DNA of 64,000 bases from an uncultured delta proteobacterium (GTDB taxonomy: Bacteria > Myxococcota_A > Polyangia > Fen-1088), in NCBI GenBank assembly GCA_963758155.1, contig CAVWUP010000019.1, forward strand, positions 6,720 through 70,719, written 5' to 3'. Under the pieces are notes generated by a model. It saw only the letters and a list, made by a program, of their open reading frames with translations, had not been told where the DNA came from and ran no database searches. The position numbers were made by a program, and so were the translations under genes. Numbering within the stretch: position 1 is the first letter of the stretch; every line of letters begins with the position of its first letter. Shown here one piece after another: positions 11,546 to 17,240 of the stretch.

Positions 11546-13894
11546 CTACTCGACCACAAGCGCATTGAACGCGACTACAAGCTGGCGATAGGCTGCCGAC
11601 GCCGCGTCGCCGTCTTGTCTCTTGCCGGTTTGGCCGCGCGCGAGAGTGACGACGTCTTTGGCGGCCTTCATGAACTCGTCGGCGGCCGAGACTTGCGCCA
11701 TCTTCGTCGGGGAATGTTGGGTGAAGTTCAGGAGGGCTTGGTGGTATTCGTCGAGCTGGGCCCGCCGATCTGTCGCACCTCGTGCCAGGGCCGGTGGAGC
11801 CTTGCCTTGGCGCAACCAGGCCTGCGCCGCTAGGGCCACCCGACGCATGTGCCAGGCGGCTGTCTGTCCTTCGTCGGTTTCTTGGCGCGACAGCTCTTCC
11901 ATCTGCCAGGCCGTTCGAACCGCCAGAAACTCTGCGCGAAAAGCCGAGGCCAGCCTGTGGAGTGCGCCAGGCTCACCCCTGGCCGCGCTCTGTAAATACG
12001 CCCCGCCCGCGGCATGAAGCTGAGGCATCTCCGGTCGCAAGCCGGCGGCTTCTTGGAGAAGCTGGATGCACCGTCCGATTTCCGCTCCGCTGGGGCCGGC
12101 GCGATTGGCGTCCTTGCGCGCATCTCCGTCGGTGTATCCGACCAGAGCCAGGCACCGGGCGTAGCGGTCGAGCTTGGCGAAAGCGCGAGCGATCTCCTCA
12201 CTGGAAGCTGGATTATTGGGATAGCTCGTCGCCAATTCAGCGCGCGATGGTTCGGGATCCGTTGCTGAAGGAAGGGGGAGAACGCGGCCGAGGTGAACGG
12301 AAAGTTCGAGGCCGGGCTTGGCCTGGAAGGAGAAACTGCGCGTGATTCGCCCCGGCGCCGCGACGTGGAGCACGTGGGACGTGCCTTCGTCGAGAAGCAA
12401 GTCGTCTCTGGTCACGGGAAGGTGGTCGGCGTGCACGGTTGCTTCGCTGGGCTCGACCGCAAGAACGACCTGGCATTGCGTGCGATGCTCGGTCAGCGCA
12501 TTTACTCGGCGGGTGGTGCGAAAATGGCGATAGGCGAAGAGGGCCACCATGAGCAACGCGAGCAGGCCGAGGGCTTTCCCCATGCGCGAGAGGTTGCGCG
12601 GGGAGAGAATGCCATCATGCGCCTCCGCCTTACGGGCGGCGTCGGATCTTGGCCACGATCGCCCGAACCGATCGATCGGCTCGGCGGCCGGCGGGCGCGG
12701 CGCACGACCCCGATCCTCGGCCAACAGGGGCACGCTGGCCTGGTCGGGCAAGGCTGCAGACCCATCCGCTGCGGCATCGTCCCTCGACGGTCGGATTGCG
12801 AAATAGGCTTGCGTGGACCCGGGTTCCGGCCGCAGCCATATCGAGGGCGGTCCGTCACCCGCTTGGGATTCTGGCGCCAACACCGAGAATCCCCCGAACG
12901 AAGCCGAAACAAGCTCGGGCGAGGGGGTGAGATCGCCGCTTCTCCCTGTCACCGCCTCGCGCATGGCCACCGCCGTCGGGAAGCGCTTCTCCATGTCGCG
13001 GTCGATTGCGCGCACGACGGTCGCTTCCAAGGCGGGTGGAATCTCGGGCCGCAGGTGGCGCGGCAGGATATACCTGCCATCGAGGATGTGGGTGAAGACC
13101 TGCGCCGGGCTCTCGTCCTCGAACGGAGTGCGACCGCACAACATCTCGTACAGGACCACCCCCGTCGAGTAGATGTCGGTGCGATGGTCGATGACTGCGA
13201 CTTGCCCCAGCACCTGCTCGGGGGACATGTACAGCGGGGTTCCCATCACCGTTCCCACGACCGTCCCGCTGCCTTTGCTGACGGCGCCCTGTCCGGGCGC
13301 CGAGCGGACCAGCATCTTCGAAATGCCAAAGTCGACAATTTTGACGAAATTGGGCCTGTCTTCGGTGTTGAGGATGAAGATGTTGTCCGGCTTGAGATCG
13401 CGATGAACGATTCCGTTCTTGTGCGCGGCCGCCAGCCCGCCAAGAACTTGGCCGATCAAATCAATAGCGAGCGGAAGCGGCAAGCAGGGCGTCTTGGCCA
13501 GCAGCGACGCCAACGACTGGCCATCCAGCAGCTCCATCGCCATGAAGAGCAAGCCTTCCGGCGTGCGACCGAGGTCAAAGACATCGACGATGTGAGGATG
13601 ACCGATGGCGCTAGCGGCGATGGCTTCGCGCTCGAAGCGAGCCGCGAGTTGGGGATCCTGGCTGGTCTCGGCCAGCAAGGTCTTCACCGCGACCCGGCGC
13701 CCGAGCGTCACGTGCAACGCCTCGTGGACCACGCCCATGGCGCCACGGCCGATCTCACGAACGATCTGATACTTTCCCTGGAGGATCTGTCCAGGTCGCA
13801 AAGACGCCGGCGGCGGTTTGTCGCCGGACTGGCCCGGTCCCATACAGCCTCCGCTTTCCGAGGAATGATATCGACCGCAACGCGGACAGACCAC
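11546..13894 (-). CDS. Ser/Thr protein kinase, single-pass membrane protein with an extracytoplasmic C-terminal domain
   Basis: Kinase subdomains GRGAMGVV, VAVK, HRDLKPDNIFI, DFGIS and SPEQ are present. A TM segment ALGLLALLMVALFAY follows, then an ~330-aa C-terminal domain. The N-terminus has a CPRCG zinc-ribbon-like start. The GTG start at 13894 is uncertain. Confidence 0.85.
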   Translation of the reverse strand: MVCPRCGRYHSSESGGCMGPGQSGDKPPPASLRPGQILQGKYQIVREIGRGAMGVVHEALHVTLGRRVAVKTLLAETSQDPQLAARFEREAIAASAIGHPHIVDVFDLGRTPEGLLFMAMELLDGQSLASLLAKTPCLPLPLAIDLIGQVLGGLAAAHKNGIVHRDLKPDNIFILNTEDRPNFVKIVDFGISKMLVRSAPGQGAVSKGSGTVVGTVMGTPLYMSPEQVLGQVAVIDHRTDIYSTGVVLYEMLCGRTPFEDESPAQVFTHILDGRYILPRHLRPEIPPALEATVVRAIDRDMEKRFPTAVAMREAVTGRSGDLTPSPELVSASFGGFSVLAPESQAGDGPPSIWLRPEPGSTQAYFAIRPSRDDAAADGSAALPDQASVPLLAEDRGRAPRPPAAEPIDRFGRSWPRSDAARKAEAHDGILSPRNLSRMGKALGLLALLMVALFAYRHFRTTRRVNALTEHRTQCQVVLAVEPSEATVHADHLPVTRDDLLLDEGTSHVLHVAAPGRITRSFSFQAKPGLELSVHLGRVLPLPSATDPEPSRAELATSYPNNPASSEEIARAFAKLDRYARCLALVGYTDGDARKDANRAGPSGAEIGRCIQLLQEAAGLRPEMPQLHAAGGAYLQSAARGEPGALHRLASAFRAEFLAVRTAWQMEELSRQETDEGQTAAWHMRRVALAAQAWLRQGKAPPALARGATDRRAQLDEYHQALLNFTQHSPTKMAQVSAADEFMKAAKDVVTLARGQTGKRQDGDAASAAYRQLVVAFNALVVE

Positions 13895-13948
13895 CCGGTG
13901 AGGATATCATCAAACCCGGCAGTGCCGAGAAAGCCCCCTTGCACACGG

Positions 13949-14112
13949 TTAACACTACTGATTGAAATTTGGACCGAGCCGGCGCGTCGCGAGGAGGCCC
14001 GGCCGCGACGAGCGCCGAGGGAAGATACTCGACGTATCTGACCGAGAAGCGAGAAAGCGGACGGGCCCCGCAGCAGCGACGGCGACGGGAGAATTTCAAT
14101 CAGTAGTGTTAA
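13949..14112. repeat. perfect 21-bp inverted repeat pair (TTAACACTACTGATTGAAATT / AATTTCAATCAGTAGTGTTAA) flanking a 122-bp GC-rich core; MITE-like or structured RNA element
   Basis: Arms at 13949-13969 and 14092-14112 are exact reverse complements. The arms are AT-rich (~30% GC) in a 70% GC genome. The core contains a nested palindrome GATAC-TCGAC-GTATC. It lies between the kinase start and the GH2 start. Confidence 0.6.
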
Positions 14113-14300
14113 GCTCCGGTAGCCTCGTGCGGGCGGTTCCGGAGTGCAGCCATGGGGAACCGCAGGGCATTGCAAGCCTGGTGATGGTACCGGACATTCC
14201 CGGGGTGCAGAGCCGGTCTGCTCCTGAGCAACTTTTGACGCGGGCAAGAATGACCCTTCTTGCCGTGTCGCTGCCCCCTATACCTCACAGGGGGGCCTCC

Positions 14301-17240
14301 ATGACGTGCACACGCGCCTTTTCGATCGTTTTCTTCTCAGCGACGCTCGTCGCTTTCGCTTGTTCATCAAGCTCGCCAAAACCGACCGGCGGTACCGGCG
14401 GTGGGGCGCCGAATTCTGGCGGCTCCGTGGGGAGCAGCGGGACCGAGGCTGGCGGGGCTGGACAGACCGCGCTTGGCTCGGGCGGGAGTGAGTCTGGCGG
14501 TCAAACCGTGACCCCAAGTGCTGGCAGCGTGGCGGGCGGCCAAGCTGGGCAAGCCGGCGGCGGCGTGGCCACCGGCGGCCAGACAGTTCCGGTCACCGGC
14601 GGCAAGACAGTTCCGGCCACGGGCGGTCAAACGAGTCCGGCCACCGGCGGGCAGACGAGTCCGGCTACCGGAGGCAAGACAAGTCCGGCTACCGGCGGTG
14701 CTGTCGCGGGCCAGACCGGCTCGAACCCGCCTGGCACTGGTGGGTTCATCCCATCCACTGCCAGCGGTGGGAGTTACGTTGCTTCGGGCGAAGCCGACTA
14801 CAGCATGGATCCAGGCTGGATGTTCATCAAGCAGGACCAAAGCGGAGCCCAGGCTACAATGGCCAGCGAGACTGGTTGGACTTCGGTCAGCACGCCGCAC
14901 ACCTACAACGACGTCGATTCCTTCCGAGGCCTCATCTCCCACAGCGGTGGCGACCACGGCTTGTACCAAGGAACGACCTGGTACCGCAAGCATTTCAAGG
15001 TTCCTGCCACATTCGCTGGCAACAAGTTCATCGTCGAGTTCGAACGGATCCGGCAAACCGCCACGTTCTATATCAACGGAACACAGGTTGGAACCTACTC
15101 CGACGGTGTCTCAGCGGTCGGCATTGATATCACTGCGAATGTCAAAGCTGACGGGACCACCGACAACGTTCTGGCGGTTCAGGTCGACAACAGCGGCGGC
15201 GGTGAGTACTGGAACGCGAATGCCACCAACCCGGACTTTGGTGGCTTGGTGGGGCATGTCTGGCTGCACGTGCCGGGCAAGATTTATCAAACCTATCCGC
15301 TCTATCAGAACCTGAAAACGACGGGCATTTACATCTACGGAACTGGCTACGCCAATATCACCAACAACACGCCCAAGGGTGACACGGGCGATCTGACCCT
15401 GAATGTGGAAGCCGAGGTGAGCAACGAATCCGGGAGTGCGGCCAGTGCCACATTGGGCGTCAAGGTGATCGATCCCGCCGACGGCTCGACCCTCGCAACA
15501 TTCTCAGGCACTGCCGCCTCGCTGTCCACCACTGCGACAACTGTGCTCAAGGCGACTGGGCCTTTGACCGGCGCCAAGTTGTGGAGCGACCTCTTTCCCA
15601 ATCTTTACAATGTCGTCACCACGCTCACTGTGGGTGGGACAGTGGTCAACTCACGCAGCACGGTCACGGGGTTCCGGCAGACTGCCTTCAAGGGCGGCGC
15701 TGGCACGGGCGGCGTCTATGTCAATGGGCGCTTTGTTTATCTTCTCGGCTTCGCCCAGCGCTCGACCAATGAATGGGCCGGACCGGGCCAGGCCGTGCCG
15801 GACTGGATGCACGACTACACGGCCAATCTGATTAGGGGCGCCAACGCGAACTACATTCGCTGGATGCACGTGACCCCGCAGAAGGTTGACCTTCAGTCTT
15901 TTGACAGATACGGCGTGATTAACATTGTGCCGGCCGCCGATAAGGAGGTGAACAATCCGACGGATGCCCAGTGGCAGGCGAGGATGACTGTCATGCAATG
16001 CGCTATGATCTACGTGAGGAACAATCCGAGCGCTTTCTTCTATGAGGCGGGCAACGGTCCCGTATCCGCTGCCCAGATGCAGCAGTTGCAGACTCTCAGA
16101 AACACTTGGGATCCAAACGGCGGCCGCGGTGTGGGTGACCGCACCCCGAGCGACACTGGTGTGATACCCTATTCCGATTGGTTCGGCACGATGGTCGGCT
16201 CCGGGTATCAGGACGCTTATCGGGACCAAGGGCCTGAGCTTGAAGAAGAAGACTACCGCGACGAAGCGCTGCGTGGCATTTGGGACGACTATTCGCCTCC
16301 ACACGTGGGCGGCTTCATTCCGGGGACTCTCGACACCTACAACGAGACATCGGAAAGCTTCGACACAGGGCAGATCGGCCGGCTCAATACCTGGTTGATA
16401 ACCGATACAATCCGGAACACCTCTGCGGGCAGTTCCAAATACGCGGGCTACGGCTCGATCTACTTTTCGGACGCCGATGCGGACGGGCGCTTGCAGAGCA
16501 GTTGCGTCTGTCGTGTGAGCGGCAAGGTCGACGTCAACCGTATCCCCAAGGAGGCCTACTACTCCTTCCGCGTGGCCGGGAACACCAAACCGGACATTCA
16601 CATCATCGGGCACTGGACCTATCCGGCGGGAACGACGAAGACCATGTACGTGGTGGCCAACAACGTCTCGTCGGTGGACCTGCTGGTCAACGGCAAGTCA
16701 CAAGGAAAGGTGACCAAAGCGACCAACGGCTATCAGTACAGTTGGGCGAACGTCGCCTTCGCCTCGGGCACCATCCAGGCCATAGGGTACGACGCCAGCG
16801 GCACGCAAGTCTGCCAGCATACCTTGACCACCGCTGGGGCGGCCGCCGCCATCAAGCTGACCAGGACAGTGGGGCCCAACGGTCTGCAGGCCAATGGTGC
16901 GGACTTTGTCATGTACGACGTTGAGGTCGTGGATGCGAGCGGAAACCGGGTTCCCACCTACGGGCCCACCACCAAACCAACGGACAACACACCAGTCAAC
17001 GAGCCCAAGATTACTTTCAGCGTGAGTGGTCCCGGAACCTGGCGCGGCGGGGTCAACGAAAGCATGACCAATTCGACCAACAACCTCTATCTGTACACCG
17101 AGGGCGGAATCAATCGCGTCTTCATTCGTTCGCAAATGACAGCCGGAGACATCACACTGACTGCCACCAGCCCCGGCTTGACCCAGGCCACGGACACGGT
17201 GACGTCCAAGACGGTCAACGTCGTGAACGGCCTTCTCTAG
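14301..17240 (+). CDS. glycoside hydrolase family 2 lipoprotein (beta-galactosidase/mannosidase-type) with a Gly/Thr/Pro-rich repeat linker
   Basis: Signal MTCTRAFSIVFFSATLVAFAC with lipobox. The GH2 sugar-binding jelly-roll region is WYRKHFKVPATFAGNKFIVEFERIRQTATFYINGTQVG...VLAVQVDNS, with TIM-barrel-like sequence after it. The ORF upstream extension (13962-14300) is Arg-rich nonsense. Confidence 0.75.
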   Translation: MTCTRAFSIVFFSATLVAFACSSSSPKPTGGTGGGAPNSGGSVGSSGTEAGGAGQTALGSGGSESGGQTVTPSAGSVAGGQAGQAGGGVATGGQTVPVTGGKTVPATGGQTSPATGGQTSPATGGKTSPATGGAVAGQTGSNPPGTGGFIPSTASGGSYVASGEADYSMDPGWMFIKQDQSGAQATMASETGWTSVSTPHTYNDVDSFRGLISHSGGDHGLYQGTTWYRKHFKVPATFAGNKFIVEFERIRQTATFYINGTQVGTYSDGVSAVGIDITANVKADGTTDNVLAVQVDNSGGGEYWNANATNPDFGGLVGHVWLHVPGKIYQTYPLYQNLKTTGIYIYGTGYANITNNTPKGDTGDLTLNVEAEVSNESGSAASATLGVKVIDPADGSTLATFSGTAASLSTTATTVLKATGPLTGAKLWSDLFPNLYNVVTTLTVGGTVVNSRSTVTGFRQTAFKGGAGTGGVYVNGRFVYLLGFAQRSTNEWAGPGQAVPDWMHDYTANLIRGANANYIRWMHVTPQKVDLQSFDRYGVINIVPAADKEVNNPTDAQWQARMTVMQCAMIYVRNNPSAFFYEAGNGPVSAAQMQQLQTLRNTWDPNGGRGVGDRTPSDTGVIPYSDWFGTMVGSGYQDAYRDQGPELEEEDYRDEALRGIWDDYSPPHVGGFIPGTLDTYNETSESFDTGQIGRLNTWLITDTIRNTSAGSSKYAGYGSIYFSDADADGRLQSSCVCRVSGKVDVNRIPKEAYYSFRVAGNTKPDIHIIGHWTYPAGTTKTMYVVANNVSSVDLLVNGKSQGKVTKATNGYQYSWANVAFASGTIQAIGYDASGTQVCQHTLTTAGAAAAIKLTRTVGPNGLQANGADFVMYDVEVVDASGNRVPTYGPTTKPTDNTPVNEPKITFSVSGPGTWRGGVNESMTNSTNNLYLYTEGGINRVFIRSQMTAGDITLTATSPGLTQATDTVTSKTVNVVNGLL

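Follow-up and report, generated by a model that had tools for sequence, protein, structure and literature searches.

The spacer between a Ser/Thr kinase gene and a divergent GH2 gene holds a perfect inverted repeat around a GC-rich core, and it raises the question whether this structure is a mobile element, the remnant of one, or a regulatory device serving the adjacent genes. The original prediction had listed a MITE, an orphan terminal-repeat remnant and an RNA structure or attenuator in the GH2 leader as candidates. The locus, part of a Polyangia (Myxococcota) MAG, was analysed within a window of 64 kb, the whole stretch of DNA under study, to which all positions refer unless a locus is named.

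The inverted repeat and its surroundings

The two arms (13949-13969, TTAACACTACTGATTGAAATT, and 14092-14112) are 21 nt long each, 100% complementary and spaced by 122 nt, which confirms the predicted repeat and its GC-rich core. Their base composition was less accurately foreseen: arms of about 30% GC in a 70% GC genome had been expected, and the measured values were 24% (5/21) for the arms and 63.7% for the window. Nor did the AT-rich arms hold up as a sign of foreign origin, since the low GC content belongs to the terminal repeats and the core has 72% GC. Each 21-nt repeat has two components: TTAA, a palindromic target-site duplication of 4 bp, and a terminal inverted repeat of 17 bp. Without the duplications the non-coding element measures 156 bp (13953-14108), or 164 nt with both TTAA flanks. 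The features of the locus are:

11546-13843, minus strand: Ser/Thr kinase gene, divergent from GH2, with GGAGG before its ATG
13949-13952, no strand: left copy of the target-site duplication, TTAA, from the flank table and the comparison of flanks with sequence clusters
13953-13969, plus strand: left terminal inverted repeat, 17 bp, CACTACTGATTGAAATT, nearly invariant across copies and pairing perfectly with 14092-14108
13970-14091, plus strand: internal core, 122 bp, 72% GC, a long imperfect hairpin on the purine-rich strand, from covariance model and pairing
14006-14056, plus strand: apical domain with four 2x2 internal loops between covarying Watson-Crick pairs, from loop conservation, and common to family 2 (see below)
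14024-14038, plus strand: hairpin tip GATAC-TCGAC-GTATC (5-bp stem, 5-nt loop), from sequence and fold
14092-14108, minus strand: right terminal inverted repeat, 17 bp, reading AATTTCAATCAGTAGTG on the plus strand, the complement of the left repeat
14109-14112, no strand: right copy of the target-site duplication, TTAA, from the flank table
14301-17240, plus strand: GH2 gene, with ATG at 14301 followed by a lipoprotein-type signal peptide (...LVAFAC...)

Within the 64 kb the element is present once, as judged by arm, profile and covariance-model searches. The arm 21-mer had no second match in the window when up to 3 mismatches were allowed, and none of 100 dinucleotide-preserving shuffles gave one. 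The element has no coding capacity; the sole ORF that crosses it runs into GH2 and is open by chance. Indeed, the GH2 frame is open upstream as far as a TTG within the left arm (13962-17240), most likely by chance in GC-rich DNA, with the ATG at 14301 as the true start. The exact sequence of the kinase protein is on record from a Polyangia MAG. The kinase leader (13844-13925) is kept in two orthologues (L134 and L135); within it the 7-nt sequences TGATATC (13866-13872) and GATATCA (13903-13909) form an inverted pair and, judging by sequence, a possible operator. The only sigma-70-like match in the region (13883-13910, plus strand) overlaps this pair and lies outside the element.

The element belongs to a dispersed family

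The arm 21-mer was found at 6 loci in three Myxococcales MAGs. These loci carry full homologous copies of ~163 bp with unrelated flanks and in both orientations. A degenerate arm pattern matched at least 120 metagenome stretches, and an nhmmer search of the fetched DNA yielded 61 full-length copies with ~55 distinct flank pairs. The copy count and search for target-site duplications that the original prediction had proposed thus returned 61 full copies at ~55 sites, with 4-bp YTAR duplications, and the recurrence of the repeats at many unrelated sites bears out its MITE candidate. We conclude that the element is very probably a MITE copy, an element of an ordinary kind, and a member of a new family dispersed in uncultured wetland Polyangia. 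It shows every feature on which the MITE literature relies except a known partner IS (PMC3184786). Most copies come from metagenome assemblies, in which repeats may collapse and chimeras may form.

In the profile search of the fetched DNA, dozens more copies were cut ~100-125 nt from contig ends, as is usual for repeats that break assemblies. In two other assemblies of the same population as the window, with 99.9-100% identity to it, contigs break off within the element (at 14079 and 14074 of the window). These two breaks are indirect evidence that the element is multi-copy in the window's own genome.

Gene context was scored for 39 copies (tandem-same 10, tandem-opposite 8, convergent 9, divergent 8). 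Placement is mostly intergenic, with at most 4 of the 39 inside ORFs by a crude gene call. The copies fall into at least five subfamilies. The 17-bp terminal repeats are perfect in the window copy and nearly invariant in more than 50 copies. The window copy is complete and ~99% identical to its subfamily consensus (~2 differing positions), so its insertion is probably recent, and the idea of an orphan terminal-repeat remnant fails.

Several irregular copies were also seen. At L022 and L063, two inverted copies each have identical flanks; the contigs are palindromic, probably assembly artefacts, and the duplicates were entered once in the counts. Mini derivatives made up of the two terminal repeats with hardly any core between them (L012 4610-4657, L019 3403-3449, L120 295-355) are either true deletion derivatives or the result of assembly collapse across the hairpin. 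At L094 (11100-11316) a copy of this family is broken, ~30 nt from one end, by ~95 nt of unrelated sequence, which looks like a nested insertion. At L011 (~12150-12340) 11-nt periodic CTGAT/CCGAT repeats adjoin a one-ended element fragment. In AT-rich DNA of an unrelated organism (L081 2715-2790 and 3528-3603), TTAACACTACTGATTGAAATT occurs with a 15/17 inverted partner 38 nt off, both pairs sitting at the inner edges of a large inverted duplication; either an assembly artefact or a remote kinship with the terminal repeat could account for this. Arm matches at L015, L020, L056, L109 and L124 are single arms in unrelated AT-rich DNA and were taken as chance.

Orthologous neighbours lack the element

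The position of the element, 189 nt upstream of the GH2 start, its very stable fold and the one promoter-like site (13883-13910), which points into it, would suit a locus-specific cis-regulatory structure, be it a GH2 5' leader RNA, a riboswitch, an attenuator or an operator pair in the divergent promoter region. We consider such a structure extremely improbable, given that the same sequence lies beside unrelated genes at ~55 unrelated sites and that orthologues of both neighbours occur without it. Five GH2 orthologues (84-92% protein identity), each with a different upstream neighbour, have no element upstream, and similarity to the window begins at ~14235. At two kinase orthologues (75-80% identity) the element is likewise missing, and the conserved leader stops at ~13922-13925, ~25 nt short of it. 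These loci exclude a conserved leader RNA or attenuator of GH2. Moreover, no T-tract follows the hairpin and no terminator-like site was found, and an Rfam scan of window positions 13000-15000 with E up to 10 gave only a chance miRNA match outside the element. The predicted GH2 leader RNA or attenuator therefore has to be given up on the strength of the five GH2 and two kinase orthologues, the absent T-tract and the Rfam result.

No clean empty site at the window locus was found via the GH2 and kinase orthologues, as the neighbours differ in every relative and homology ends ~25 nt to the left and ~120 nt to the right of the element. Under the MITE interpretation, the element would probably be a recent arrival in the DNA that separates the promoter regions of the kinase and GH2 genes, with no dedicated function there. 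An incidental effect of the insertion on the expression of GH2 or the kinase is possible.

Insertion duplicates a 4-bp YTAR target

The tetranucleotides at both ends were compared in ~54 distinct copies. Identical flanks were present in 37 of the 54, namely CTAG/CTAG in 28, TTAA/TTAA in 7, and CTAA/CTAA and TTAG/TTAG in 1 each; ~12 of the 54 have mixed, non-matching flanks. The two flanks of a copy are not independent of each other (Fisher p = 7e-6), and the non-palindromic matched flanks are direct repeats, with no inverted case. The TTAA/TTAA copies are spread over four internal-sequence clusters, every one of which also has CTAG/CTAG copies. Since both flank types occur within single subfamilies, the tetranucleotide comes from the target and not from the element. 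The flanking tetranucleotide is a 4-bp YTAR duplication. Further support is provided by a filled and an empty site (L005 and L091, respectively), which are colinear to the base once the element and one tetranucleotide are removed; this is the one clean pair found, and its flanks are 82% identical.

The original prediction had read TTAA as a signature of IS630/Tc1-mariner or piggyBac-like elements. A MITE of the IS630/Tc1-mariner type would duplicate TA in an NTAN target. TA is indeed central in every flank, IS630 prefers CTAG, and a TA model explains the mixed flanks with fewer substitutions. Against this, the inner flank bases would have to switch from G..C to A..T independently in four subfamilies, each time together with the outer bases. 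In addition, CTAA/CTAA and TTAG/TTAG are direct and never inverted, so that the bases beside TA behave as part of the duplication. The piggyBac-like variant, which would require TTAA only, is at odds with 28 CTAG/CTAG copies vs 7 TTAA/TTAA copies. We regard the IS630/Tc1-mariner type, its TTAA variant included, as very unlikely: CTAG flanks are the commonest, the duplication is a direct 4-bp YTAR, and flanks are mixed within subfamilies. Four-base-pair YTAR duplications point instead to a DDE transposase of the IS5 or IS701 type (PMC5009759, PMC2266710).

All four YTAR tetranucleotides are depleted in the 64-kb window, 5- to 20-fold, as the following counts show:

CTAG: 27 observed vs ~213 expected
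TTAA: 5 observed vs ~69 expected, two of the five being the element's own flanks
CTAA: 5 observed vs ~114 expected
TTAG: 16 observed vs ~129 expected

Several CTAG sites of the window lie at gene ends. In 15 of the 54 copies a long coding-like ORF has its TAG or TAA stop in the duplicated tetranucleotide. Insertions thus often hit a stop codon, which the duplication restores; the target tetranucleotide is rare and frequently found at stop codons.

The hairpin is preserved by compensatory changes

Folding, also suggested in the original prediction, placed the 164 nt in a single long imperfect hairpin (-96.9 kcal/mol, z = -8.1). The nested GATAC-N5-GTATC palindrome noticed earlier is real and constitutes the tip of this hairpin (14024-14038). 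A covariance model of the core scored 130.7 bits on the window, on the plus strand only. The consensus hairpin of 41 distinct copies has 50 pairs, the fold-back as a whole 60, and 98.4% of the alignment cells are paired. Compensatory double changes were found at 14 pairs in this alignment (13 internal pairs and the duplication pair itself). When partners were slid by 1-3 columns as a control, 23-47% of cells paired and 1-4 pairs had double changes, and none of 500 shuffles reached the observed pairing and covariation. Covariation is shared within subfamilies, so the cell counts overstate the number of independent events: about twelve pair positions in ~6 lineages are involved, and not 93 independent events.

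Singleton substitutions were equally frequent per column in paired and unpaired positions (0.27 vs 0.29), which indicates that inserted copies decay neutrally. The structural constraint acts only on the lineages that propagate. Judging from the aligned copies, the hairpin is maintained between subfamilies by compensatory changes and is unusually well preserved.

The two strands are not equivalent. In 52 of 53 copies the purine-rich strand (the plus strand of the window copy) gives a fold ~10 kcal/mol more stable than that of its complement, and unpaired internal columns are 87% purine vs 50% in paired columns. An asymmetry of G-U vs A-C wobbles was tried as a test for RNA and was unsupported, the strand asymmetry coming from purine-purine loops instead. 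The G-U counts (1.6 in the plus-strand fold, 3.0 in the minus-strand fold) favour neither strand, so that RNA and single-stranded DNA are not distinguishable on this basis.

Four 2x2 loops lie in the apical domain of the window copy, at the following positions:

14010-11 opposite 14051-52
14014-15 opposite 14047-48
14017-18 opposite 14044-45
14021-22 opposite 14040-41

They consist of GA opposite GA, except that the second loop of the window copy is GC/AA. GA/GA is conserved in 41, 38, 35 and 28 of the 41 copies, respectively. Only one other reading recurs, GC/AA; it has two independent origins, each in a different subfamily, and the window copy belongs to one of these subfamilies. Tandem G.A pairs are known to stabilise helices of RNA as well as of single-stranded DNA, and a swap of A.G for C.A would fit sheared-pair geometry. 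At the tip, the ATAC...GTAT pairs are invariant in 41 of 41 copies and the closing pair covaries (GC in 26 copies, AU in 15).

A strand-asymmetric hairpin whose structure is conserved more than its sequence, with a GTAG tetranucleotide inside each arm (CAGTAGTG), also recalls a REP/REPIN-like palindrome moved as single-stranded DNA by a RAYT (HUH) enzyme. Direct 4-bp duplications and a colinear filled/empty pair are not HUH products, and here the inverted repeats lie at the very termini. Furthermore, GTAG reads outward in the arms, whereas in REPIN architecture it faces inward. A REP/REPIN-like origin is consequently highly improbable.

The fold-back itself would be needed for the element's own spread, or would be an RNA or single-stranded-DNA product of the element, rather than being needed by neighbouring host genes. 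A proposal that overlaps with the MITE reading goes further: the hairpin core would be a mobile structured-RNA or single-stranded-DNA module and the functional unit, with the terminal repeats only as its vehicle. Such a module might act as a small RNA, as a processing or stability element, or as a cis-acting single-stranded intermediate needed for spread. The compensatory changes at the 13 internal pairs, the conserved GA/GA loops between covarying pairs, the same coordinated change from GA/GA to GC/AA occurring twice and the strong strand asymmetry are in favour of it, as is the precedent of bcr1 (PMC3184786). The copies have no preferred orientation with respect to adjacent genes, a recognisable internal promoter and a terminator are both missing, and Rfam gave no match, all of which weigh against the module. 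So do the equal substitution rates of paired and unpaired positions in inserted copies, which the host does not appear to maintain. On balance we think a functional module of this kind possible, if somewhat doubtful.

A second family shares the core

A second family (family 2) of ~155 bp with CTAG flanks has terminal repeats unrelated to those of the family described above, family 1 (AGCGCCGAACGGTTTG...CAAACCGTTCGGCGCT). Both families have in common GGACCGAG, the whole apical domain and GACGGGAG, and family 2 contributes additional compensatory pairs. The copies of family 2 are:

L027 2365-2519
L047 10352-10506 (the same site as L067 6295-6449)
L025 1311-1465
L100 2587-2741
L069, partial, near 43

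At L027, a family-1 and a family-2 copy abut with one CTAG in common. In the fetched loci, the core covariance model found no carriers beyond the two families and one contig-end fragment (L053 1-79, minus strand). This fragment has the apical core (GGGCGCATACTCGACGTATGTAACCGAGGAGC) behind a different putative end, after CTAG, and may represent a third family.

A core common to two families with unrelated termini again favours the structured module. In this form the proposal, which we advance tentatively, is that the core is a single-stranded module, needed in cis for propagation or expressed as a small structured RNA, that has been captured by at least two sets of transposon ends. If true, a requirement for RNA or single-stranded DNA would be an unusual constraint for an otherwise cut-and-paste DDE passenger, and an expressed core would be in effect a mobile structured-RNA gene.

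Parent element and transposase

An autonomous element with matching ends, or a transposase beside any arm, was not found in ~900 kb of related DNA, in viral contigs or in a plasmid collection, and the element sequence itself had no match in plasmids or viral contigs. As no autonomous partner was found, mobilisation and the transposase family are inferred. Candidates for a parent with arms 600-3500 bp apart and matching YTAR flanks (L022, L063, L081) were all palindromic assembly artefacts, and ORFs just inside 15 one-ended arms were ordinary host genes. An ORF of L091 that ends within an arm resembled a transposase C-terminus and is in fact a relic ORF from a family of small proteins. Since the relic is truncated by a 48-nt right-end MITE fragment, it is not a parent. 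The proteins of this family (L091 1-413; L136 4935-5630, with the same gene in L137-L140) have ~164 aa and a winged-helix-like C-terminus (...RLLRRLHAHGLIAKIPRSRRWRVSL...), and gave no Pfam or NCBIfam match. They are mostly encoded on contigs below 3 kb, so the family is probably multi-copy itself.

By our model, a DDE transposase of the IS4/IS5 superfamily would move the element in trans, making 4-bp staggered cuts at YTAR. IS5 uses a YTAR target and duplicates all 4 bp (PMC5009759), while IS711, of the same family, targets YTAR and duplicates the central TA (PMC2266754). Target duplications in the IS701 family are exactly 4 bp, with the end consensus ---YACT-Y--YR, which according to its authors does not represent the whole family; IS4Sa has the consensus end CACTAGTG and 8-10-bp duplications (De Palmenaer et al. 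2008; PMC2266710). The element thus shares the target and the 4-bp duplication with IS5 (IS5 group, IS5 family), and the target with IS711 (IS427 group), which differs in duplicating only TA. Both are autonomous and carry a transposase gene, unlike the element. IS5-family ends typically start with GG or GA, and the end of the element, CACTACTG, which starts with CA, would not resemble them.

Relatives of IS4 typically begin with 5'-CA, as the element does. It agrees with the IS4Sa end CACTAGTG at 7 of its first 8 bases, with duplications of 8-10 bp in IS4Sa vs 4 here. With the IS701 family the element has in common the exact 4-bp duplication and a YACT block at the right offset in CAC-TACT-GATTGA. 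When the IS701 consensus, which is not family-wide, was compared with CACTACTGATTGA, YACT at 4-7 and R at 13 matched and Y at 9 and 12 did not. No IS701-type transposase was found beside these ends in the DNA searched, and the consensus does not fit the family-2 ends (AGCGCCGAACGG). Going by the ends and duplications, an IS701-like member of the IS4/IS5 superfamily would be our first guess for the transposase, with about an even chance of being right, and the IS5 group our second.

Significance and comparison with known MITEs

For annotation, the 164-bp feature should be recorded as a MITE insertion and not as a regulatory RNA of GH2. The family accounts for the fragmentation of wetland Polyangia assemblies at such sites and provides a starting point for studying how mobile elements behave in an uncultured clade with large genomes. 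Its chief interest is evolutionary and lies in compensatory upkeep restricted to spreading lineages and in the same core on two sets of termini. The literature searched contained no MITE description for Myxococcota or uncultured Polyangia.

The defining features of bacterial MITEs have been listed, and Correia/NEMIS of Neisseria, ERIC, RUP and Nezha reviewed (PMC3184786). The element resembles them in its size range (~100-200 bp), terminal inverted repeats, short target-site duplication and lack of a transposase gene, as well as in its many intergenic copies, filled/empty polymorphism and long stem-loop fold. It is unrelated in sequence to Correia/NEMIS, ERIC, RUP and Nezha. Unlike in known bacterial MITEs, its duplication is a 4-bp YTAR rather than TA, and Nezha has a partner, ISNpu3, whereas none was found for the element in the DNA searched. 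A further relevant case is bcr1 of the Bacillus cereus group, a transcribed element of ~155 bp with 5-bp direct repeats and compensatory changes (Klevan et al. 2007, summarised in PMC3184786). There is no sequence similarity to the element, and bcr1 has a cruciform-like fold with two stem-loops, in contrast to the single long hairpin, tandem GA/GA loops and 4-bp YTAR seen here. It shares with the element its length of ~155 bp, short direct-repeat flanks, a non-conserved genomic distribution and compensatory changes that keep the structure.
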